Assembly: GCA_000004695.1 (NCBI GenBank)
Contig: CM000151.3
Coordinates: 6,368,001-6,432,000 of the forward strand
Length of the DNA stretch: 64,000 bases
Origin: Dictyostelium discoideum
Taxonomy: Eukaryota
Reading direction: 5' to 3'
The notes under the pieces are model-generated. The model was not told the origin of the DNA and ran no database searches. It saw nothing but the letters and a program-made list of their open reading frames with translations. The stretch's first letter is position 1. Each line of letters starts with the position of its first letter. The translations under genes were made by a program, and so were the position numbers. Positions 21,623 through 37,872 of the stretch are shown in pieces.

Positions 21623-22837
21623 TATAATATTTAAATGCGTGTATTTATTATAATTAAAAAAAAAAAAAAAAATTTATTGATAAATAGCTGCGAAAAAATA
21701 TTTTAATGTTAAAATAGAAGATATTTTAATAATTAACACTATTATTTTATTATTTTATTATTTTATTTTTGAATGCCAAAAAAAAATAAAAAAATTGAAT
21801 TAGTAAAAAAAAAAATTATAAAAAAAAAAAATTAATAAATTAAAAATAAATATTTATTCTTAATGTGTATAAAAATAAAGTGAATGGTGGTGAGTTTTTT
21901 TGTTAACGATGGGTTATGTGTGGGGAAAAAAAAAATTGAAAAAAATAAAAAAAATTTAAAAATAAATAAAAAAAAAAAAATAAAAAAAAAAAGTTTTTTT
22001 GGTTGTTTAAAAAAAAAAAAAAAGTTATCGAGATTATAAATAGATATTTTATAAACAGTTGGTTTATACCTTTTTATTTATCATATATTTGAACTTCTTA
22101 TTTTAAAAAGAAAAAAAAAAAATAATAAAAGATTTAAATAATAATAAAATAAAAAAAAAAAATTTTAAAAAAAAAAAAAAAATAAAAAAAAAAAATAGGA
22201 AAAAAAATTTAAAAATAAAAAAAAAAAAAATGGTTTTAAAACCAGGTTTTAATCACTTTTTTTTTTATAATTATTTTAAGCAAAAAATCACTTTTTTTCT
22301 TTTTTTCTTTTTTTTTCTTTTTGTAAAAGGAAAAACCATAAAAAAAAAAAAAAAAAAAAAAAATATTAAAAGAAAAAGTGATTTTTTTTTTTTTTGATTA
22401 CTAAAAAAGAAAGAAAAAACATTTTTGGGAATAACAAACAAAAACATAAACCCATTCTAAATAATCAAAAATAAAAAGAAATTATACATTACATACCAAT
22501 CATTAATTTTTGTCTGAATCACAAAATAAAAAAATAAAAAAAAAAAAAAAAAAAACAATAAAAGATTTAAATAATAGAATTTTTAAATAAATCTTAGTTA
22601 TTATAAAATAAAGTAATGATTAATCATTTTGTATTTAAACAAAAAACAAATTAAAAAATGAAATGTTTTTTTATTTTTTTTTTTTTTTTATTTTTATTTT
22701 TTATTTTTTTTTATTTTTTTTTTTTTTGTCAAAAAACGAAATATTAATCGTTTTTTTTTTTTTTTTTATTTTTTTTTTATTTTTATTTTTACTTTTTTAA
22801 CTAATATTTCTTACATTCCATTTCTTTTCAAACTAAA

Positions 22838-23480
22838 ATGGAACATTCAAAAATTCAAGAATATAAAGAGAGTGGATTCGTTTTTGATTCATCAAAATCA
22901 TTTAGTATTGATGAAATTGATGGTAAAGAATTATGGTTAATTAAAATTCCAAGAGATGTAAGTCAATATTTTTTTTTTTTCATATTTTACATTCAGATAA
23001 ACACACACACACACACATATCCTTTATTTAAATTATCTTCTTCAAATTGGGAGTATTGTTATTATAATTTTTTAACTTTTTTTTTTATTTCTTTTTTATT
23101 TATTTTTAGTTACCATATGAATCATTACCAAATAAAATACAAGTATCAGATTTAAATAAAGTTAATGTTAAATCAATTGATATTAATAAAAAGAAATTTA
23201 CAATTCATCAAGATGATACTGAACAAATTCAAGGATTATTTAATGTTTGGTCAAAGAATTCAAATAATGGTAAAATGGGATTAGGTAAACCATTCACTAA
23301 ATTCATTCAAATTGATGAATCAGTAAATTTACCAAAAGAACAAGTTGAACCAAAACCACTTCCAAAACCAAAACAACAACATGATCTCTTAAAAGGACGT
23401 TATGATCCACCAGGTTCTTCTGGTTGTATGTAATCAATAATTATTTATTATTTATTATTTATTATTTAATCATAATCATA

Positions 23481-23555
<75 letters not shown>

Positions 23556-24148
23556 GTATTTTTATTAATAAATGTTTATGTATATATGTATATTATTATC
23601 ATACTACAATTACTACAGTTTTAGAGAAATTAGGAAAAGAAAGTAAAAATAAAAATATAAAAATTAATAAACCAACTAAACCAACAACAACAACAAAAAC
23701 AACAACTACAACAACAACAACATCAAAAACAGCAGAAAAAGAAAATAAAAAAGAAAATAAAAAAGAAAAAGAAAATAAAAAAGAAGTTAAAAAACAAGAA
23801 TCTGAATCTGAATCAGAGTCAGAAGATAAAAAGAAATCATCTAAAAATGATAAGAAATCATCTAAAAAAGATAAGAAATCATCTAAAAAACAAGAATCAT
23901 CATCAGAAGAGGAATCATCAGATGAATCATCATCAGAAGAAGAGAAAAAGACTAAGAAATCAAAGAAATCTTCATCATCTAAAAAAGAAGAAACTAAAAA
24001 AGAAGAATCCAAAAAATCAAAGAAATCATCATCTAAAAAAGAAAAATCAGATTCAGAATCTGAACCAGAGAAAAAGAAAAAAGAAAAAAGAAAGAAAGAT
24101 GATTCATCTGAAAATAATGAACAATCTAAAAAGAAACATAAAAAATAA
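22838..24148 (+). CDS. RNA polymerase I subunit RPA34 (A34.5/PAF49)-like protein: N-terminal domain plus long K/S/E-rich tail; three exons
   Basis: Exons 22838..22957 (donor GTAAGT), 23110..23425 (acceptor TATTTTTAG, donor GTATGT) and 23619..24148 (acceptor CTACAG). '...ELWLIKIPRD' and '...KKFTIHQDDTEQIQGLF' resemble yeast A34.5 'VWLIKFPSNV' and 'DYKIMDDTDIESSL'. The tail is (KKSSKK/EESS/KKEK)n. The antisense ORF 23599..24156 is rejected. Confidence 0.45.
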
Positions 24149-24231
24149 ATAATCATTCCACATTCAACATTGTTAATAATATAAACAACAACTCTTTTTT
24201 TTTTATTTTTTTATTTTTTATTTTTATTTTT

Positions 24232-25080
24232 TTATAATTTTGAAATTGGATGACCATGTCTACCTAAACCATTATTAAATGAAATTGAACCATTTAAACC
24301 TTGATTTAAGAATGATTTTAAACCAAGTTGATATTCATTAAATAAAGCATCATTTAAATTTAAACTCCATTGATCTAATGATGATTTTCTATCAGATTTT
24401 AAAGTTTGTTGAGGATTTGAAATGATTTGTTTTGCTAATGTAATTGAGTGAGCCATTAGTTGATCTTTTGATTCAACGATTCTATTTACAAGCCCAATTT
24501 GAAATGCTTCATTACTGTCCACAGCTCTACCTGTTAATATTAAATCCATTGCTCTTGATTGACCAATTAATCTTGGTAATCTAATTGTACCACCATCAAT
24601 AAGTGGTACACCCCATCTTCTACAAAATACTCCAAATGTAGATGACTTGGTTGCAACTCTTAAATCACACCATAATGCTAGTTCAAGACCACCAGCAACA
24701 CAATACCCATCTATACTACAAATTACAGGTTTGCTTAATTGTAATCTTGTGCATCCCAATGGTGCATAATCAGTTTCTTTTGGAGATAAAATTTTATTAC
24801 CTGATTCAATACCTTTTGGTATCTCTTTTAAATCTGCACCAGAACAAAAATTATCACCATTTCCACATAGTATACTTATTAATAAATTATCATCTTTATC
24901 AAATTCTTTAAAAATATTATATAAATCATCTGCTGTCTCTTTATTAATTGAATTCCTACTTGAATTTCTATTAATTTTTATTATTAATATATTTTTATCA
25001 ATAATTTCTATTAAAATATTATTATCATTTTTATTTATTGGTATCATTTTTTTTTTTTTAAATTTTTTTTTCATAGTCAA
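24232..25080 (-). CDS. Enoyl-CoA hydratase/isomerase (crotonase) family protein with C-terminal PTS1 (-SKL)
   Basis: 'ILCGNGDNFCSGADLKE' and 'CVAGGLELALWCDLRVA' are crotonase-fold motifs. The protein ends ...HPISKL. The start may be the third Met (MIPINK..., 25047) because the leading MTMKKKFKKKK derives from an A-tract. Confidence 0.65.
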   Translation of the reverse strand: MTMKKKFKKKKMIPINKNDNNILIEIIDKNILIIKINRNSSRNSINKETADDLYNIFKEFDKDDNLLISILCGNGDNFCSGADLKEIPKGIESGNKILSPKETDYAPLGCTRLQLSKPVICSIDGYCVAGGLELALWCDLRVATKSSTFGVFCRRWGVPLIDGGTIRLPRLIGQSRAMDLILTGRAVDSNEAFQIGLVNRIVESKDQLMAHSITLAKQIISNPQQTLKSDRKSSLDQWSLNLNDALFNEYQLGLKSFLNQGLNGSISFNNGLGRHGHPISKL

Positions 25081-25085
25081 AAAAA

Positions 25086-25125
<40 letters not shown>

Positions 25126-25247
25126 TTAATTAAATTATTGATATATATTTTGTAAAGAAATTAAAAATCAAAAATAAAGAAAACAAAAAATAAATAAAGA
25201 ATACAAAAAAAAAAAAAAAATTATTTGTGGAAATTTAATTTTACCTC

Positions 25248-25281
<34 letters not shown>

Positions 25282-25402
25282 AATAAATTTCTTTTTAAAT
25301 TTCTTTTTTAAAAATAAAATCAAAAAAAAACAAAGAATACAAAAAAAAACGAATTATTTGTGGTAATTAAATTTTACAACCTTTTTATTAATTATAAATT
25401 CA

Positions 25403-25451
<49 letters not shown>

Positions 25452-25549
25452 AAAAAAGAAAAAAATTTAATTATTTAATTAAATTATTGGCATATATATT
25501 GAAGTTTTTTTTTTTTTTTTTTTATTAATTTTATTTATAATTATAATAA

Positions 25550-26969
25550 TTAACAATAACCTAAATCATTAACATTATTATTATTAGTATTGTTATTATT
25601 AATATTATTATTATTATTATCATTTATTGAAATTGAAATTAAAGATTTATTTTCATGTTCGAGATCAAGTTGTTTTAATTTACTATCCCAATCATCTTGA
25701 GTTAAATCAATTTTAATTATAGGTGGTGAAGAAACTATTGGAGTGATTGAATCAGCTGAATGATAAACATCAATATTACTATTTGAATCACCAAATGTTT
25801 TTGCATAATAAGTTGGTGAAGAATTAAGAGATGATGATAATGAATTTAAATGATTATTATTATAATTATTATTATTATTATTAATTAAAGGTGAATTTAT
25901 TGGTGAAACATTACTTGATGATCTATTATAGGTTAAGCCAATTTCTTTAAGTTTTTCAATTATTATTGAGAAATCTTTTGGTCTATTTAATGGATTTCTA
26001 TCCCAACATTGTGTTATTAATTCTTTAAATTTTAAAGGTACATTAAATGGTATTTGTGGACGATAATTTTGTTTTGGATCAGAAACCATTGATGCCATCT
26101 CTTTTGGTGAATAAATTGTATTTGGTGGTGCATATGAAAACATTTGCCAAACTAATAAACCAAATGAATAGATATCGGATTTTTCATTAATTGGAGAACC
26201 ATTTAAATTCTCTGGTGCCATATAATGTATTGAACCACCTCTTAATTTCTTTGATTCACTTTGATTTGATGATAAACCAAAATCACAAACTTTTGCTGTG
26301 AATTCATTTGAACCGTATAATTGATTTGGTAATATCTCTCTCTTGAAATCTAATAATACATTATTTGAAGTTAAATCACGATGAATTATATGTTGTTTAT
26401 GTAGATATAGTATACCTTTAGCTATATCAGTTAAAAGTTTAACACGTAAATGTGGATTGTTTTCCAAAACTTTATGATTATTCATAAGGAATTGAGTTAG
26501 GTTACCACCAGACATCCATTCTGAAACTATACAATGATTGGTTTCCTTCTCACCATATTTTATACATGCAGCCATGAATTGAACTATATTTGGATGTCTT
26601 AAATTCGATAGAATCAATACTTCATGATAGAATGTATCACAAACTGTAATGGCTTCACAATGAGCTTTCTTTACAAATTTAATTGCAACTTCAGTCTCAT
26701 TCAATAAACCTTTTTTTACATCTCCAAAATTACCTGCTCCGCCTTCTGAATCATCTTTATCAAATTCTAACTCTTCAAATTCAATCTCCCATTTTGGTTT
26801 TTCATATTGTGGTGCAAATTTAGCTGGAAATCTTGATGATAAATAATTATCTTTTTCATTTTCAATTTCTTCAAAATCGTCATCATCTTTAAATTTTGGT
26901 TCAACACCATAATTTTTACTTTTATTTGGTCCAATTATATGTACCTTTTTTTTTTTTTTTTTTTAAAAA

Positions 26970-27014
<45 letters not shown>

Positions 27015-27411
27015 TATTAATAAATTATTTATTATTATTAATATTTATTAAAATTAAATAATTACAATTAATTTATGACTTAATAATTCTTCCATATAAG
27101 ATCTTTTTTTTGGATCAATAACTAAACAATGATTTAAAAAATCTTTTAAAGTATCAGATAAATGATCTGGTATAATTGGTATACCATTTAATTTTTGAGA
27201 TAAATCACCACCAGCCATTTCAATTATTGTACAACCTAAACTCCAAACATCTGATTTTCTAGTTGCTCTATAATTTCTCTTAACTTCTGGTGCCATATAA
27301 TTGAATGTACCAATGATTGCAAATGAACTTTGTTTATATTGTTCATTTAAATAAGTTGAAATTCCACTACCACTACCATTTAAATCATTATTATTATTAA
27401 TATTATTAATA

Positions 27412-27488
<77 letters not shown>

Positions 27489-28094
27489 TGGATTATTATT
27501 ATTATTTGTAGTCTCATTTAAATATTGTTCAAATTGTTTTTTATTTTGAATTGTTGATGCACCAAAATCAATTAATTTTAAATTCTTATTCTTATCTAAT
27601 ACTAAATTTGCAGTTTTAATATCCCTATGAATTACATGATGTTTATGAAGGAATGATAATGTCTCAACTAAATCAGCAATCATTGATATTATTCTACTCT
27701 CTTTAAATCTACCTTGTTTTTTGGTTTTTAATATATTTGCTAAATTTTCACCTTCAATATATTCCATATAAATATAAATAAAATTATCATCTTCTGCATG
27801 TGAATAATATCTTGGTATATTAAATAATCTAATTTTTTCTAAAATATCGGTTTCATTTCTTTTCTATACAAATTTAAAATTATTTAATATTTAATAATTT
27901 AATAATTTATTTTTATTTTTATTTTTTAAATGGCAACATACAAATTTATCTTTACTAATTATTTTAATTGCAACGTAATCAACTTGTTCATTTAATATAA
28001 ATCCATTTTTTTTTCTACATTTTATAACTCTACCATATTGACCTTCACCAATAAAAGAAATTTCTTCCCAATCATCTTTATTATGATAATGCAT
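25550..28094 (-). CDS. Putative dual-kinase protein (about 781 aa): N-terminal STE-like Ser/Thr kinase domain fused to C-terminal TKL-like kinase domain; three exons
   Basis: Exons 28094..27942 (GEGQYGRV, VAIK; donor GTATGT), 27863..27066 (HRDIKTANLVLD, DFGAS, GTFNYMAPE; donor GTAATT after ...SHKLI) and 26944..25550 (acceptor (A)nAG; GGAGNFGDV, VAIK, HRDLTSNN, DFGLS, HYMAPE). All junctions are phase 0. The downstream kinase has no ATG of its own. If intron B is not spliced, these are two genes, 27054..28094 and a start-less 25550..26944. Confidence 0.5.
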
Positions 28095-28211
28095 TTTTTA
28101 TTATTTTTATAATATATAAAATATTTATATATATTTTTTGTAATATTACAAATTATTATTTTTTTTTTTTTTTTTGCTCTTTTGTTTTGTTTATTTTAAT
28201 TTTTAATTTTT

Positions 28212-28247
<36 letters not shown>

Positions 28248-28681
28248 ATAAACTTCTTCTGAGTGGTTTGTAAAAAGACGGTTTATTGGTCTATTTTTAG
28301 CTACTATATAAAACAAATAAATATTATTCAACAAATAATATAATATATTATTTGAATAAAATATTAAAAAATATTAAAAAACATAAAAAAAAAAAAACAT
28401 AAAAAAAAAAAAAAAATAAGACGAACGTTAACAACTGATCTTTTTTTTTTTTTCATAATTTTTTTTTTATTTTTTATTTTTTTTTTGTGTTTTAGAAAAT
28501 ATCTTTTTTTTTTTTTTTTTACCCATCCCTTTCTCAGAAAATAACTTTTTTAAACCTTTTTGTTTTTAAATCAATGCTATCCCAAAAAAAAAAAAAAAAA
28601 AAATAATATATTATTTTCTCTTTTTTTTTTTTAAATTTAATAATATATTTAATAATTTAAAAATTTTAATTAATATAAATA

Positions 28682-28736
<55 letters not shown>

Positions 28737-28809
28737 AAAAATCAAACAAAATATTTATTTATTTTTATTTTAATTTTTTTTTTTTTTTATTATTATTTTT
28801 AATTTATAT

Positions 28810-29964
28810 TTACAAAAATCCTGAATTATAAAATCCACTACCATAGGTTGATGAGTCATCTGATGTAGAATAACTAGAATTACCAGAGTTGGAAATTGAA
28901 ATTGTAGAAATTGTTGTAGTGATAGCTGTTGAAGAAATTGTTGATGCATTTGAATTATCTTGGAAATAAATTTGATTTATATCTTTTAATTTATCAATTA
29001 TTTCAGAGAAATCTTTTGGTCTATTTAATGGATTTCTATCCCAACATTGTGTTATTAATTCTTTAAATTTTAAAGGTACATTAAATGGTATTTGTGGACG
29101 ATAATTTAATTTTTCATCAGAAACCATTGATGCCATCTCTTTTGGTGAATAAATTGTATTTGGAGAGGCATATGAAAACATTTGCCAAACTAATAAACCA
29201 AATGAATAGATATCAGATTTTTCATTAATTGGAGAACCATTTAAATTCTCTGGTGCCATATAATGTATTGAACCACCTCTTAATTTCTTTGATTCACTTT
29301 GATTTGATGATAAACCAAAATCACAAACTTTTGCTATAATTTCATCAGAATCATAAAATTGTTCATCATTATTACTACTATTATTATTTAATAATTTCTT
29401 TTTTCTAAAATTTAATAATACATTATTTGAAGTTAAATCACGATGAATTATACCTTGTCTATGAGAATAAAGCATACCTTTTGCAATATCTAATAAAATT
29501 TTAACACGTAAATGTGGATTAATTTCTAGAATTTTACGTTCATTTGAAATGAATTGTGAAAGGTTACCACCAGACATCCATTCTGAAACTATACAATGAT
29601 TCACTTCTTTATTGTCAAATTTAATACATGCAGCAATGAATTGAACTATATTTGGATGTCTTAAATTCGATATTATCAATACTTCATGATAAAATGTATC
29701 ACAAACTGTAACATTTTCACCATGAGCTTTCTTTATTAATTTAATTGCAACTTCAGTCTCATTATAATATCCTTTCTTTACAACACTAAAAAATCCATCA
29801 CCACCAACTGTATCATCTTTATTAAATTTTAATTCATTAAATTCAATTTCCCATTTTGGTTTTTCAAATCTTGGTGCAAATCTTTCTGGAAATTTTGAAG
29901 ATAAATAATCATTATTAAATTTTGGTTCAATATTATTTTCTCTATTTTTATTTTGTCCAACCAT
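28810..29964 (-). CDS. TKL-like protein kinase (paralogue of the C-terminal domain of the upstream dual-kinase gene), copy 2 of a ~2.9-kb tandem duplication
   Basis: 384-aa ORF with its own ATG. Motifs VAIK, HRDLTSNN, DFGLS, HYMAPE. The glycine loop is degenerate (GGDGFFSVV). Positionally conserved GT..AG sites mean it could also be spliced in-frame to the upstream remnant. Confidence 0.6.
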   Translation of the reverse strand: MVGQNKNRENNIEPKFNNDYLSSKFPERFAPRFEKPKWEIEFNELKFNKDDTVGGDGFFSVVKKGYYNETEVAIKLIKKAHGENVTVCDTFYHEVLIISNLRHPNIVQFIAACIKFDNKEVNHCIVSEWMSGGNLSQFISNERKILEINPHLRVKILLDIAKGMLYSHRQGIIHRDLTSNNVLLNFRKKKLLNNNSSNNDEQFYDSDEIIAKVCDFGLSSNQSESKKLRGGSIHYMAPENLNGSPINEKSDIYSFGLLVWQMFSYASPNTIYSPKEMASMVSDEKLNYRPQIPFNVPLKFKELITQCWDRNPLNRPKDFSEIIDKLKDINQIYFQDNSNASTISSTAITTTISTISISNSGNSSYSTSDDSSTYGSGFYNSGFL

Positions 29965-30031
29965 TGATGACTTTTTTTTAATAAATAAATAAATTAATAA
30001 ATTATTATTATTATTATTATATTTTTTTTTA

Positions 30032-31048
30032 TTAATAAATAATAATAAAACCTACAATTAATCTATGAGTTAATAATTCTTCCATATGTGATCTTTTATT
30101 TGGATCAATTATTAGACAACGTTTTATAAAATCAACCATAATCTCTGAAACATGATTTGGTATAATTGGAATACCATCAAATATTTTCTTTGGATTACCA
30201 CCAACAATTTCAAGAACTGTACATCCTAAACTCCAAACATCTGATTTTTTAGTTGATCTATGTAATTTTTTAACTTCTGGTGCCATATAAGTATGAGTAC
30301 CAGTGATTGCAAATGAACTCTCTTTACAAATATTATCACCATCATCTTGTTGTTGGTCAATAATTGATGAACCAAAATCAATTAATTTTAATACTCCATT
30401 CTTATCCAATATAATATTTGATGGTTTAATATCTCTATGAAGAATTTGATGTTTATGAAGGAATGAAAGTGTTTCAGTTAGGTCTGCAATCATTGAAATA
30501 ATTTCAGACTCTTTAAATCTTAATTGTTTTTTATCTTTAAAATATTACATTGTTTTTTTTTCATTTTTAATAAATTTGCTAAATTTTCACCTTCAATATA
30601 TTCCATATAAATATAAATATAATTATCATCTTCTGCATGTGAATAATATCTTGGTATATTAAATAATCTAATTTTTTCTAAAATATCGGTTTCATTTCTT
30701 TTCTATACAAATTTAAAATTATTTAATATTTAATAATAAAATTTAAAAATAAAATTTAAAAAAATAAATTATAAAATTAAAATATTAAAATATAAAATAT
30801 AAAATATAAATATAAAATATTAGTTTAAATTTATTTTTTGAAAAAAATAAAATAAAAATAAATAACTTTTATAATGATTTTTGATAACTTACAAAAAACT
30901 TTTTATTTATTATTTTAACAGCTACAATATCAACTTTTTCATTTTCTATCAAACCATTCTTCTTTCTACATTTAAGTACTCTACTTTTTGAATTACAAGA
31001 TCCAATAGATGAAATTTCTTCCCATTCTTCTTTTTTGTGAGAATTCAT
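30032..31048 (-). pseudogene. Decayed copy of the N-terminal (STE-like) kinase domain of duplication unit 2
   Basis: Exon A' 31048..30890 has a degenerate G-loop (GSCNSKSRV). In exon B' (from 30702), a 26-nt insertion relative to unit 1 around 30505-30535 causes a frameshift and a stop. HRD/DFG/APE motifs remain downstream (ORF 30032..30493). Confidence 0.4.
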
Positions 31049-31181
31049 TTTTTTTTTTTTTTTTTTTTTTTTTCCCCTCAACAAAAAAAAATAATTATTA
31101 GTTTTATATACAAATAAAAATAAAATTGAATTTCACGAAAGTGAAGTTAATCTATTTTTGTGATGGCAAAGGTGAAATAAA

Positions 31182-31215
<34 letters not shown>

Positions 31216-32231
31216 AAAATAAAATAAAAATAAAAATTAAAGTATGGAACCTTTGTCCTAAAAAAAAAAATAAAATAAAAAATAAAATAAAAAATAAAAT
31301 AAAAAAAAAAAATTTCATCATGATTACAACACGACAAATTCAATGAAAGTAAGTTTTTTTTTTTTTATTTTTCTTGATGTCATTCCAAACTTCTTCAAAA
31401 AGATCATTAAATAAAAGGTTCCTCAGAGTGAAAAAATTATAATAAATTTTAATTATTATTTAGCTTTATTATTTATCTTTTTGAGTATGTTAATATTAAT
31501 CTAAAAAATATAATATAATTTTTTTTTTTTTTATTTTTTTTTTTTTTTCAATTTTTTTTTTTCTTGAAATGTATTATAATTATTTAATAATGAACTTAAC
31601 AGATTTGTGAGTTGTGTGTGTTGAATGTGTGGTAGGTTTGTGATTTTTTGTTTTTAATTTTTTTCTTTTTTTCTTTTATTAAACCATCCAAATCCCGTCA
31701 CATAAAAAAAAAAAAAAATTTTATTTTTTCTCTTTTTTTTACAAACCAAAATATCTTTTTTTATTTTTTGAAATTAAAATTTTAAATATAGGTGCCATTT
31801 GAGAAGCCAAATTGACGTTTCAGAAAAAAATTGGAATTTTATTCTCTTTAAAAAAAAAAAAAAAGAATTTCAAAAACACTATTAATAACTTTTTTTTTTT
31901 CATCTTTATCATTCTATTAATTAAGTTTAAACCACACTCACACACACTCACACACCCACTTCCATCTTTGTTAAAAAAAAAAAAAATTAAATAAAATTAA
32001 AAAAAAAATAAAAATAGAAAAATAAAAATAGAAAAATAAAAATAGAAAAAAAAAAATAAAACATATTTTAATTAAATTATTTTTTTTTAAATAAGCCTTT
32101 TTTTTTATTTTTTTCATTTTTTTTATTTTCTATTTTTATATTTATTTATTTTTTTTTCTTTTAAACAAAAATAAAAATAAAAATAACAAATAAATTAACA
32201 CAATAGTTTAATAAATATATAAATAAATAAA

Positions 32232-32487
32232 ATGGGAATTATAAATACAAAAAAAAGAAAACAAAATAGAAATAATGGTAGTTTTAATAATATAATAAAT
32301 ACAATGGAAACAAATATATCAAGTTATACAAGTGATGATTTTTTAGATTTCTATGAAGGATCACTCAATGAAATGGATTTTGGAGATTATTCAAGTACTA
32401 CAAGTTTAAATAGTGGTCTTGTTGACTTTGAAAATATAAATTTAAATATTTTATTTGATGATAATAGTAGAAAAAGTATTAAAACTT

Positions 32488-32531
<44 letters not shown>

Positions 32532-32842
32532 TTTAATAATAATAGTAATAATAATAATAATATAAATGAATGGAAGTGTTCATCCATATTTGTAACATAT
32601 AATATACGGATTAAAAAATATGAATGTACAAAATCAATCGTTGAAGAAGTAAAGGGAAGAATATCATGTTTTAAAAAATCATTATCAATTGAACCATTAG
32701 ATATATCACAATTTGAGTTCAATATGAATCAAAATGATCTTTTTTCAAATATTTTATCAAAAGAAATTCAATCATTAATTGTATTAAATTTATCAATTTA
32801 TGATTTACTCTCATTATTCAGTAAGTAAAATATTAATAAATT

Positions 32843-32930
<88 letters not shown>

Positions 32931-33363
32931 TAATTTATTAATCTTTTATTTATTTTATAAAATAGGAGTAAATAAATATTGGTATGAATTTGGACAAAAT
33001 AACAGTTTCTGGAAAAGTTTAACATTGAGAGATTGTGAGAAATGGAATAATAAAGATTTGGTTAAATTAAAGATTAAAAATGGTCAACCATTCTTTGGTG
33101 ATAATAATAATAAAAAAGAGAATTATAACAATTCATCATGGAAAGATTTTTATAAACAAATGACCAGATTAAAAATGTGTAAACAATGTAATATAATTTT
33201 TAGAGAATATAGTAATTCAAATAGCGCTTGTAATTATCATTCAGATATTAGAGATTTAATTCATTCTCGTGGTGCTCTACCTTCTGGAATGTATTGGAGT
33301 TGTTGTTTATCAAAACCAAAAAATAGTATTGGTTGTACAACAAAGTGTCATGAGGAAGAATAA
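32232..33363 (+). CDS. F-box-like protein with N-terminal MGxxxT (myristoylation-type) start and C-terminal Cys/His-rich region; two exons
   Basis: Exons 32232..32820 (donor GTAAGT) and 32966..33363 (acceptor AAAATAG; phase 1). The intron is 145 bp and contains an (A)50 tract. F-box-like segment spans the splice: 'EIQSLIVLNLSIYDLLSLF|RVNKYWYEFGQNNSFWKSL'. C-terminal CKQC...CNYH...CCLSKPKNSIGCTTKCH. Confidence 0.5.
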
Positions 33364-33715
33364 AAAATTAATATCCCCTTCCATATATATATATAAATAA
33401 TATAAAAAAAAAAAAAAAATTAAATATAATATAAATTTAATTAATTTTTGGAAAAATAAAAATAAATAATTAATTTTTTAAATGTATAAATAATTTTATG
33501 TTTTTTTGGTGTAGTTATTTTTAACTTTTATTTCAATTTATTTTTTTTATTCAAAAAATAATAATAATAATTAAATTTTTTAAAAAAAAAACAATAAATA
33601 AAAAAAAACAGATAATACATTTATTTTTTAAATATTTTTTACATTTATATAAATTCTAAAAAAAATTAATAATTATTTCTAAATAATTATTTAAATATTT
33701 GTGTGATGGTTGGAA

Positions 33716-35027
33716 TTAACAAAAATTAATTAAATTTCTAATTTCTGGGGTAGTATTAACTGGTCTAATACATATTTTTTCAACCTTTACAATGAACTCA
33801 TTCCAATTTTCATTACCCAAATCGAAATCTGAATTACTATTGATTAATGGAGTTGTAATTTGTTTTTGTTGTTTTTGAGAAACAAATGACATTGAAAAAG
33901 ACATCATTTTGAATGATTGTGATATTTGTTTTTTTAATTCATTAAAATCGGCAACACTTGAAAGATCAATTGTTTTACTTTCGCCACCTTCAATTGAACA
34001 ACAAACATTGTTTACAGTTTTTTGTTTTTTTGTTGGTGATGAAACTGGTGAAATTGTAGTAGTTGTTGGTGATGGTGATGTTGATAATGATGATGAGTTG
34101 TTATTATTATTTAAATTTTCAATCTTTTTTTCAAAATCAATATCACAATCACTATCAATATTAAAACCATAACTGAAATTTGAATTTATATTGTTATTAT
34201 TATTGTTATTATTGTTATTGTTATTGTTATTATTATTATTTTGAAAAGTTGGGGTTGTTGATCTTGTTGTTGTAGTTGTTGTGGTTGTTGTTGGTGGTGG
34301 TGGAATATTATTTGGTTTGGTTTGTGATGGATGATATTGTTGTTGCATATGTTTTGATAATATACTATTATTTAAATTATTTATATTTAACATATTAATA
34401 TTTGAATTTGCATTATAAAATTGTGGCGGATAAGTAATTGATTGTTGAGATTGTTGAATATTAAAAGGTGCTTGATTATTAACAAAACCATTAACGGTTG
34501 CCGATGGCTTAAAAAATGAAAAAGGTTCAGGTTTAACAATTTGTTGTTGGTTATTTACAAAGGTATTGATTGAGGTACTGTATCTTTCGTCCAAAGGGTA
34601 TTCGGTTGCTAACCTTTTTTTATTATTATTATTTACAGATGTAGAAGTTGTAGTGGTTCTACTATTACCATAGTTGTTATTATTGTTGTTAAAACTGTTG
34701 AAACTGTAATAACTCGATGATTGGCTATTCAAGGATGCTCTACTTGCCATATTTAAATAAGTTATATAATTTAATTCTTCAAAAGTTGGTTTTTTTTGTG
34801 GACCTAAAAAATAACAAAAAATAAAAATAAAAATCAATTAATAATTTTAATTTAATAATTTAAATGATTAAAAATTTTAATACTTACTAATATTTGAATT
34901 TGAATTTGAATTATTATTATTGCTATTACTATTATTATTATTATTATTATTGTTATTATTATTGGTATTATTATTGTTGTTATTATTATTATTATTAGAA
35001 TTATTATTATTATTATTATTATTATTA

Positions 35028-35072
<45 letters not shown>

Positions 35073-36154
35073 GAGTTATTATTATTATTATTATTATTAT
35101 TATTTTCATTTATTTTAGTATCGAAATCATTTTCATCATAAATTGAACCCATTGGAGAAGAAGGAACAGTTGGACTATCATATGATGATGATTGGGACTT
35201 ATAATCAGAATCAGAACTGAAAATATCAGGAGATGTATAATCTTGTTGGGTAGAGTATGGCGATGCCTTTTTTTCATTGGATGGAGTTGGATTTGAATAA
35301 CTATTGAATGTAGGAATTGGAGTTTGTCTACTATTTTGTTGATTACCAGTGACTGGTGCAGTTGTTGTTTGATAATTAAAGTATTGATTGTATAATGGTT
35401 GATTAGTTGGTATCGATTGTCCTTGTGACAATTGGAATAAGGTTTGAGATGATGTAATATTTTGGTTACCTCTATTTTGTGAATTATTGTTATATGTTGA
35501 TGAAGATGATGATGATGATGATGACGATGTCGATGATGAAGAAGAAGAAGATGATGATGAATCATCTGATGTAAGTGTAGATGTTGGAGATGAAATGGCA
35601 GAACTATTCGTTGAAGATGATGAATTATGTAATAAGCTTGAACTATTAAAATTAAAATGAGTACCAAATGGTGATGGTTGAATACTTAAAGAAGTTGGAG
35701 TTGAAGAAGCACTTGGAATTGGAGATGATAATGATAAGGTACTAATATTCATATTTGAATTATTATTATTAATATTATTGTTATTGTTATTTACATTTGA
35801 TGAACCAGGTGAGCATAATGATGGTGTTGAACTATTTGAAGATGGTGAGAATGGTCTTGGAAAATATGGTTGAAAGAAATTATTTGAACCTGGGAAGGGT
35901 GGATTTAAATCTTCTTTTTGTGTAACTTGAATAATAATCTTATCACCTTGTCTAATGTATGGAATATCGGACTTAATAAAATTCTCTTCAATATATGAAA
36001 TATTTGTACCCAATCTTTCATGATTATTTGCAATCCATTCACCCAATGCAACATTTACCAATTTAACATGATTTAATGCGACCAATCCATGAAGTGGTGA
36101 AGAGTTACCATTTAAATTTGGTGAAGATATTGGTGATGGTGGTGATTGTTGAAA

Positions 36155-36226
<72 letters not shown>

Positions 36227-36742
36227 AATATTATTATTGTTATTATTATTATTACTCAATTTTGTATTAAAATCAGATGTAATTCCAATATTAAAATTAG
36301 AATTTTGTTGATTTGTCAAAATATTATTAATATTATTGTTATTGTTATTAATATTATTAATATTATTATTATTATTATTATTTAATTGTATTATTGATGA
36401 TTGAGAGCAATTTTTTAATTGATTATTGTTAATTAATTCGTTATTATTATTATTATTATTATTTTGAACTGATTTTGACCAATTTATAGAATGAAATGAA
36501 CTTAAACGAGTTTTTGATTTTTCGGATATTAACAAACGGAAACCTTGATATTTTTTGGTTAGACGATTAAATCTTCCACGAAGAGTTGACAAATTAACAT
36601 GAAACAAAGCGGCTAAGGTTCTATCTGGAAAATAAATTGGCTCGTTTTCGGAATTACAAAAATATTGGATTTGAGAGATTTCTCCAGTATTTGATAATTC
36701 AATGTCAAATTCTTTGACATAATATTCTCTATGTTTTTCCAT
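33716..36742 (-). CDS. Large low-complexity (N/S/T/Q-rich) protein of unknown function, about 980 aa; two exons
   Basis: Exon 1 36742..34888 (donor GTAAGT) and exon 2 34803..33716 (acceptor TTTTTTAG); intron 84 bp, phase 1, and the frames join exactly. N-terminal globular region MEKHREYYVKEFDIELSNTGEISQIQYF... Central '...HVKLVNVALGEWIANNHERLGT...'. Several homopolymeric Asn/Ser/Thr runs. Confidence 0.5.
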
Positions 36743-37872
36743 TTTTTATTTTTATTTTATTTTATTTAATTATTTTAATTTTTTTTTTTTTAGATTGAAA
36801 GGAAATTGACCAAAAATTAAGGAAATATATAACTTCGAGAAAGTTTAATAAAAATCAATAGTGATTAATGGTGGAGTCGTGGATTTAAAAAAAAAGCACG
36901 TGAGTTTTTTTGTTTGGTAAATAAAAAATAAATTTTTTTTTTTCCTTTTACTTGTAACTTTTTTTTTAAAAATAAAAATAAAAATAAAAATTAATATTTA
37001 TTTATTTTTGTATACAAATAATAAATTATTTTAAATTTTGGGGTGTATTAAAGGATAGTTAATAGTGTAGTAGGGGAGATTTGTAGGAGAAAAAAAAATA
37101 TGTGGGTGGTGGGGTAATAATGGTGTTGTTTTTTTTTAATTTTTTTGTTTTTTTTTAATGTTATGTGGAAAATACTACTACTACTACTATTGGGTACATA
37201 TTAAATTTTTAAAAAATCATATTATCAGATCAATATATTATAATATCAATATAAAAAAAAAAAAAAATAATAAAAAAAAATTTTATTTGGGGTGTGTAAT
37301 AAAAAAATAATTGCAATTATTATACAGAAATATGGATAAATTAAAAAGCCTTGCCAACCCAAATAAAATTTTGAAAAAAAAAAAAAAAAAGAATTTGATT
37401 GATTTTTAATTTGTCATATACAAACAATAACAATAATTCAACCAACATAATAAAAAGTATAACAATAACACAACAACATAAAAACGAATAAATTATTATT
37501 ATAATTATTTTAAATTTTTTTTTTTTAATGACGTAAACAACAGATTTTAGTTTTTTCATTTTTTTAATGGCGTTGTTTGTGTGGTGTAGTGTGGTGTGAT
37601 GTGGGAGTGGGAAATTTTAAAAAACAGAACTTGTTTTTTTTATTTATTATTTATTTATTTATTTTAATTGATTTTTTTTTTGGCCTATTTAATAAGTACA
37701 ATCAAAAGAAATTGGATACATTTATAATATGGTAATATTGAACCACACTATTCAAATGAATAGTTTTTTTAATTAATGCAAACAACATCTAATATTTCAA
37801 AAAAAAAAAAAAATAAAAAATAAAAAATGAAAAAATAAAAATAGGAATTAGATAAAAACAAAAAACAAAAAA

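Follow-up and report, generated by a model that had tools for sequence, protein, structure and literature searches.

The tandem dual-domain kinase genes zak2 and zakA of Dictyostelium discoideum: an old pair with patchy gene conversion and a one-base lesion in the reference reading of zak2

The zak2 and zakA gene pair

The stretch of DNA considered here is a window of 64,000 nucleotides (nt) from Dictyostelium discoideum, and all coordinates are positions within it. With ~20% GC and open reading frames (ORFs) rich in poly-asparagine (poly-Asn) it is typical Dictyostelium sequence, and it contains two paralogous kinase units that lie head-to-tail on the minus strand with an ATG-to-ATG spacing of 2,954 nt. 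These are the known D. discoideum tandem pair zakA (downstream) and zak2 (upstream), both of which we compared with their counterparts at five further genome loci (L001–L005). An initial annotation, made from the window alone, had called the pair a tandem duplication of a whole dual-kinase unit, and that description holds: a repeat finder gives a parallel layout of the two units at offsets of 2,810–3,062 nt, and both are three-exon genes with introns at matching positions, all in phase 0. Their coding sequences (CDS) are 80% identical in nucleotides and 71% in amino acids (aa). The genes are built as follows.

28810–31048, minus strand: zak2 (DPYK4), copy 2 of the initial annotation; exons 31048–30893, 30702–30056 and 29970–28810 (stop included)
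30892–30703 (190 nt) and 30055–29971 (85 nt), minus strand: introns of zak2, GT..AG, phase 0
25550–28094, minus strand: zakA (ZAK1), copy 1 of the initial annotation; exons 28094–27942, 27863–27066 and 26944–25550
27941–27864 (78 nt) and 27065–26945 (121 nt), minus strand: introns of zakA, GT..AG, phase 0

The zakA CDS is intact (2,346 nt, 781 aa), with both kinase domains complete and joined in frame. It agrees with ZakA (DDB0185184) in Table S2 of the kinome study (PMC1420674), as far as that entry is visible, and is the same gene as ZAK1, with a canonical glycine-rich loop (G-loop) in each domain and no difference of substance. The zak2 CDS as it stands in the window is 1,964 nt long, is out of frame and runs into a TAA at 30522–30520. 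When the 56-nt intron of the public AX4 gene model is applied to the window, the product is an exact match to P0022, which is Q552C6 / XP_643302, "Dual specificity protein kinase zak2", 635 aa. Q552C6 falls in the same protein cluster as the orthologues of copy 2, and a protein search with copy 1 returns orthologues in D. discoideum, D. citrinum and D. firmibasis (P0001 and P0002 among them) together with copy 2 orthologues of 651–653 aa. The gene begins at the ATG at 31048 and not at the TTG at 31084, to which copy 2 had initially been extended. The ATG at 29964, from which the distal tyrosine-kinase-like (TKL) domain had been given a reading frame of its own, does open a 384-aa ORF; it is, however, an internal methionine of exon 3, which begins at 29970, and the breaks between the ORFs are introns.

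Both proteins consist of two kinase domains, matched by Pfam Pkinase/PK_Tyr_Ser-Thr in two stretches in zak2 and three in zakA, the third zakA stretch probably arising from a poly-Asn insert that splits the N-terminal domain. Among solved structures the N-terminal domain comes closest to those of the STE-group kinases MEK1, ASK1, PAK6 and MST3, and the motif HRDLTSNN of the C-terminal TKL domain is found in both zak2 and zakA, so that each has the STE–TKL composition of the ZAK dual-domain kinases in addition to its identity with the named protein. In kinome Table S2, DPYK4 (DDB0229958) is classed as STE/Dicty3/NZAK + TKL/CZAK and rated "partial kd/kd", with the remark "lacks G52" and the code 'aq', and ZakA (DDB0185184) is rated "kd/kd"; the same study lists ZakA and DPYK4 as dual-domain kinases that originated by fusion of STE and TKL domains (PMC1420674). 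For biochemical function we rely on the literature, according to which ZAK1 and ZAK2 (= DPYK4) activate GSK3 via tyrosine phosphorylation downstream of the cAMP receptors (PMC3135261, PMC5941370). Their roles are complementary and cell-type-specific and help to set the prespore/prestalk choice (PMC3135261), in keeping with the functional divergence of the two copies that was initially proposed. The locus and its tandem kinase pair are thus already known and hold no new kind of biology.

The poly-Asn tract of zakA, ~40 residues encoded by AAT repeats (27387–27506, minus strand), lies in exon 2 between the DFG and APE motifs of the N-terminal domain. Its length differs among D. discoideum strains and the tract is absent from the zakA genes of D. 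citrinum and D. firmibasis; it is therefore a repeat expansion of the D. discoideum lineage within a kinase activation segment.

The frameshift in zak2 and the public gene model

Four features of exon 2 bear on the reading frame of zak2.

30527–30532, minus strand: run of six A (A6), the actual frameshift site; L004 has A7, the other genomes GAAAAAA or TAAAAAA
30520–30522, minus strand: premature TAA in the upstream frame, as read in the window, a result of the missing base
30547–30576, minus strand: zak2-specific in-frame segment NLLKMKKKQC, in frame in L001–L005; the "insertion" of the initial annotation
30535–30590, minus strand: 56-nt pseudo-intron of the AX4 zak2 model, coding for GENLANLLKMKKKQCNILK; restores the frame in the model

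Exon 2 had initially been described as thrown into a stop by a 26-nt insertion at 30505–30535. The loss of frame and the stop are real features of the window, but their cause is one missing A, and the coordinates of the insertion were off by ~20–40 nt. Relative to zakA, zak2 has an extra 27-nt in-frame segment (~30576–30547) that forms part of an internal repeat, NLLKMKKKQ / NILKIKKQ. The segment is coding in five of the five other genomes, and the window shows 26 nt solely through the one lost A. The orthologues read through it without a break as ...GENLANLLKMKKKQCNILK[I/M/L]KKQ[L/F]RFKE.... At the A-run itself the window reads TTAAAGAT-AAAAAACAATTAAG, starting TTAAAGAT-AAAAAAC, where L004 has TTAAAGATAAAAAAACAATTAAG (core ...GATAAAAAAAC), L005 and L001 have ...GATGAAAAAAC..., D. 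citrinum has ...GATTAAAAAAC... and D. firmibasis has ...AACTTAAAAAAC.... One A added to the window gives a 1,965-nt, 654-aa ORF that is nucleotide-identical to the L004 CDS (protein P0019). The 1-nt frameshift is seen in the window only, being absent from L004 and from the four other genomes, and this difference in the A-run is the sole disabling lesion in zak2. We also asked whether the run might cause programmed frameshifting or transcriptional slippage, and dismissed the idea: it is only 6 nt long, and no other genome requires such a device.

Over 14.3 kb the window and L004 show 3 mismatches, and 4.2 kb of this are 100% identical, whereas L005 and L001 differ by ~2.4% mismatches. Apart from the zak2 site, nine of the nine indels between the window and L004 fall between genes, in homopolymers 12 nt or more in length, with L004 shorter each time. 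The indel in zak2 stands alone on three counts: it lies in coding sequence, its run is short, and L004 has the longer version. Along 22785–37095 the nine intergenic A/T runs (at least 12 nt) are longer in the window by 1–12 nt, and the three substitutions include a synonymous TCT/TCA difference in zakA at 28056. The resulting rate of ~1 discrepancy per kb far exceeds any plausible mutational divergence of derivatives of the same isolate, so that errors of assembly have to account for most of it. In the zak2 run, A7 is the state that keeps the frame and has phylogenetic support. The newer assemblies were made from Nanopore and Illumina reads (Holland et al. 2025, PMC12745789), and in the AX4 reference the kinome authors corrected genome-sequence errors, namely frameshifts, in four kinase genes (PMC1420674). 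We infer, with considerable confidence, that the A was lost from the AX4 reference through an error of base-calling or of assembly.

The 635-aa AX4 protein, which reads ...MEYIE joined directly to DKKQLRF..., is reproduced exactly when positions 30590–30535 of the window are spliced out. This pseudo-intron has GT..AG ends, is 56 nt long and has 14.3% GC, against 4.7% in the two real introns of zak2, and Dictyostelium introns have been described as 60–250 nt long with a GC limit of 15% (PMC1420674). The peptide GENLANLLKMKKKQCNILK that it encodes is in frame and conserved in all zak2 orthologues, and since 56 nt do not make up whole codons, its removal would break the frame of the 1,965-nt intact CDS in every other genome. 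The segment thus lacks both the typical properties of a Dictyostelium intron and a non-coding character. Its residues align with "GGSLDQVLKK" of MEK1, which, going by general kinase architecture, we read as the last part of the hinge together with helix αD, followed in zak2 by the zak2-specific insertion. The 635-aa model thus lacks 19 conserved residues, probably those of helix αD in the first kinase domain, and the true zak2 product is most probably 654 aa and not 635 aa; the database protein of zak2 / DPYK4 (Q552C6) is otherwise that of the same gene, and the 19 residues it is short of (GENLANLLKMKKKQCNILK) are encoded by all the other genomes. Because "partial kd" was given to the 635-aa sequence, the kinome rating of the first domain may partly reflect the missing residues, although Table S2 itself notes only "lacks G52". 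Other GT..AG introns across the frameshift (14, 30 and 38 nt) were tried and rejected as too short, out of frame or stop-creating.

A different irregularity is found in the deposited zak2 models of two diverged D. discoideum isolates (L005:6001–8216 and L001:6981–9286; P0018 and P0021), which skip VAVKIINKKFF and with it the catalytic lysine. These models take an upstream in-frame GT (GTAGCT, codon 41) as the donor of intron 1, where the conserved donor in the two strains is GTGAGT, not GTAAGT; its use leads to proteins of 652–653 aa that are colinear with all other orthologues, and the deposited versions are probably artefacts of annotation.

Age, constraint and gene conversion

The order F-box-like gene, zak2, zakA, ECH_1 enoyl-CoA hydratase is common to three further assemblies labelled D. 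discoideum and to D. citrinum and D. firmibasis. As the same pair is found in the same order and between the same neighbours in all of them, the duplication is old: it precedes the split of these three species, and the divergence of D. discoideum and D. firmibasis has been compared to the human–mouse distance (PMC12745789). In earlier comparative studies neither Zak1 nor Zak2 was found in D. purpureum or in more distant species (PMC4931340, PMC5941370). The neighbours on both sides keep their synteny in every genome compared. Downstream of zakA lies an enoyl-CoA hydratase (ECH_1/ECH_2; 24232–25080, minus strand) and, upstream of zak2 and divergent from it, a two-exon F-box-like gene (32232–33363, plus strand) whose apparent intron contains a long poly-A tract at ~32840–32925.

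The first kinase domain of zak2 was initially thought to be decaying, with its G-loop lost and the gene midway to subfunctionalisation or to a pseudogene. The loop and the two tracts discussed below lie at the following positions.

30977–31003, minus strand: degenerate G-loop GSCNSKSRV of the zak2 N-terminal STE-like domain; conserved as GSC[NY][ST]KSRV; "lacks G52" in Table S2
30553–30742, minus strand: conversion tract 1 in zak2, covering the last ~40 nt of intron 1 and the 5' part of exon 2; 190 nt, 96% identity
27714–27903, minus strand: zakA partner of tract 1, from the repeat finder and paralogue dS
29022–29337, minus strand: conversion tract 2 in zak2, covering DFG, the activation segment and part of the TKL C-lobe; 95% repeat match
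25984–26299, minus strand: zakA partner of tract 2, from the repeat finder, site patterns and dS

The loop itself had been read correctly: where zakA has GEGQYGRV, zak2 has GSCNSKSRV, and the Pfam Pkinase match to its N-terminal domain begins only at profile position 19. The variant is nevertheless kept, together with the extra segment, in six of six other zak2 orthologue sequences (the five further loci and a second D. citrinum protein), with the segment in frame in each of the six. All zak2 orthologues retain VAVK, HRD (as HRDIKPSN), DFG and APE, so that only the G-loop is degenerate, and with the VAIK lysine and the HRD and DFG aspartates all in place the domain shows none of the motif losses that mark a pseudokinase. 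The ratio of nonsynonymous to synonymous divergence (dN/dS), calculated between orthologues by the Nei-Gojobori method, is 0.07–0.16 for the zak2 N-terminal domain and, at a similar level, 0.10–0.19 for its C-terminal domain, compared with 0.05–0.07 (0.24 in the closest pair, which offers very few sites) and 0.03–0.07 for the two domains of zakA. The zak2 values do not tend toward 1, nor does the gene carry further lesions, there being no other difference from the L004 CDS. By these estimates the N-terminal domain of zak2 evolves somewhat faster than its zakA counterpart, yet clearly under constraint, and the G-loop variant and 9-residue repeat are conserved, lineage-wide features of zak2 and not decay. 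The G-loop of the C-terminal TKL domain is also slightly non-canonical, GGDGFFSVV (GxGxxS; 29779–29805, minus strand) in all zak2 orthologues, where zakA has GGAGNFGDV.

The near-identical block that had been noticed between the two copies is present, at 27714–27903 and 30553–30742 (190 nt, 96%). A sliding comparison finds two tracts in which zak2 and zakA of one genome resemble each other at least as closely as orthologues do. In tract 1 (codons 52–94 and part of the intron) the synonymous divergence (dS) between the paralogues of the window is 0.00, against 0.43 in the remaining kinase regions, and within the tract the introns of the two genes share 95% identity in the window but only 60–68% in D. 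citrinum and D. firmibasis. D. discoideum zak2 here reads KRNETD, as zakA does, where zak2 of D. citrinum and D. firmibasis reads KVNET[SN], a pattern that points to a zakA-to-zak2 direction in the D. discoideum lineage. In tract 2 (codons 555–659) the paralogues of the window have a dS of 0.066 and those of the other genomes 0.14–0.32, against 0.43 in the rest of the window's pair. Orthologue dS in both tracts is 0.13–0.31, with one zakA comparison at 0.81. Sites of the concerted type and fixed paralogue differences stand at 9:1 in codons 560–680 and at 9:171 elsewhere (Fisher p = 6e-10), and at one tract 2 site there are three different states, each common to both paralogues of a genome. The zak2 of the AX lineage has PQIPFNVPLKFKELI, as in zakA, and that of the diverged isolates PQITNNVPLEFKEFI, which indicates a recent extra conversion.

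Within the tracts dS is thus far below that of the flanks and also below that of the orthologues, and species-specific variants are shared, the pattern expected of interlocus gene conversion; the near-identical block is accordingly a conversion tract and not the remnant of a young duplication. The case resembles concerted evolution of tandem paralogues in its near-zero paralogue dS, in its shared species-specific variants and in one tract that reaches into an intron. Unlike gene-wide concerted evolution, conversion between zak2 and zakA is patchy, and most of the sequence is cleanly orthologous (171 fixed paralogue differences). In the literature searched we found no earlier report of gene conversion between the two genes. 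Beyond the two tracts the paralogues have diverged less in D. discoideum (dS 0.43) than in D. citrinum and D. firmibasis (0.75–0.79), which suggests further, less obvious conversion in the D. discoideum lineage or differences in rate.

Competing readings and their implications

What we hold to be much the best account of the locus is that zak2 and zakA are an old, functional pair, with a lesion in an A-run of the reference that is masked by a false intron, and with patchy conversion between the genes. An ancient tandem duplication of an STE–TKL gene gave two copies, both retained by purifying selection, and repeated homogenisation of parts of them by gene conversion produced the near-identical block and a second tract on the substrate-facing part of the TKL domain. 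A6 in place of A7 in the AX4 reference, most probably an error, creates the apparent frameshift in exon 2, which the public model hides behind its false 56-nt intron at the price of a 635-aa in place of a 654-aa protein. Several points weigh against this account. The dN/dS values are averaged over long branches and are blind to constraint lost in the last few decades. Other D. discoideum isolates in the newer assemblies are described as "genetically diverged from AX4", the laboratory strain AX2-214 being the only one not so described (PMC12745789), and L004 would be AX2-214 by this elimination, not via an accession table. Look-ups of the exact ORFs (153 aa, 384 aa and 781 aa) for read-derived contigs with A6 or A7 gave no match.

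These points leave some room, though not much, for a real 1-nt deletion in the AX4 (or AX3/AX4) lineage, which we consider unlikely. The gene would then be a very young frameshift allele truncated after ~112 residues and, if translation did not resume further on, a null or a hypomorph; pseudogenisation would have only just begun. In favour of this, A6 is what the window shows and what underlies the public AX4 model, and the run is short (6–7 nt), a length at which Sanger base-calling is usually reliable. A background difference in the pathway is also conceivable, given that GSK3 phenotypes are strain-dependent between the DH1 and AX2 backgrounds (PMC5941370). What speaks for an error instead is that the gene has no second lesion and, once repaired, is identical to the L004 CDS; that the ~1 per kb discrepancies between window and L004 are otherwise all homopolymer-related and so mostly assembly errors; that several frameshift errors in kinase genes of the AX4 reference are documented (PMC1420674); and that ZAK2 null phenotypes and kinase activity have been reported (PMC3135261).

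The initial proposal of a decaying first kinase domain, disrupted by a 26-nt insertion with the TKL domain surviving as a separate ORF, is very improbable on present evidence. It drew on the window, in which the G-loop is non-canonical and exon 2 out of frame, and could appeal to the kinome rating "partial kd", "lacks G52" and 'aq' (PMC1420674), but that rating was applied to a model 19 residues short through the pseudo-intron, and the conserved loop, the in-frame segment in six of six orthologue sequences, the four retained motifs and a dN/dS of 0.07–0.16 all run contrary to it, as do the age of the duplication and the absence of the lesion from L004. Resequencing that left copy 2 intact had been named as the outcome that would speak against decay, and the independent assembly L004 supplies it in spirit, by one base added and not 26 removed. 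It is harder still to believe that the AX4 model is correct, that is, that 30590–30535 is a true short intron and the 635-aa product real, possibly through a coding-to-intron change that compensates the deletion. The GT..AG ends and a GC content just below the 15% limit are compatible with this, whereas the segment falls short of the 60 nt minimum, has a GC content threefold that of the real introns, encodes a conserved peptide under purifying selection whose splicing would break the frame in all other genomes, and would take with it the probable helix αD of the kinase fold. A parallel is offered by the kinase pseudogenes that lie under bogus introns (Goldberg et al. 2006, PMC1420674), in which, as here, an intron that an automated or curated model places over conserved coding sequence hides a frameshift. 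Unlike those pseudogenes, zak2 has one 1-nt lesion and no further damage, is under strong purifying selection and has intact orthologues as well as an intact, near-identical counterpart in a laboratory-lineage assembly (L004), and it fits the genome-sequence-error category of that study better than its pseudogenes.

For practical purposes, the 654-aa form of zak2 is advised for constructs, CRISPR guides and structural models that start from the AX4 sequence, and Q552C6, which is probably wrong by 19 residues, calls for a small annotation correction; the comparison of the window with L004 also offers a local view of the discrepancy rate between a Sanger-era reference and a Nanopore and Illumina assembly. 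If A6 were real after all, AX4, as the most widely used reference strain, and possibly all AX3-derived strains would be spontaneous zak2 frameshift mutants with AX2 intact, which could contribute to the differences in GSK3-pathway phenotypes reported between DH1 and AX2. The patchy conversion is a small and apparently unreported observation that warns against dating the duplication by sequence divergence alone. Better supported than a real A6 allele is the idea that recurrent conversion keeps the two TKL domains nearly identical in their activation segment and in part of the C-lobe, which would preserve the interface with their shared substrate GSK3.

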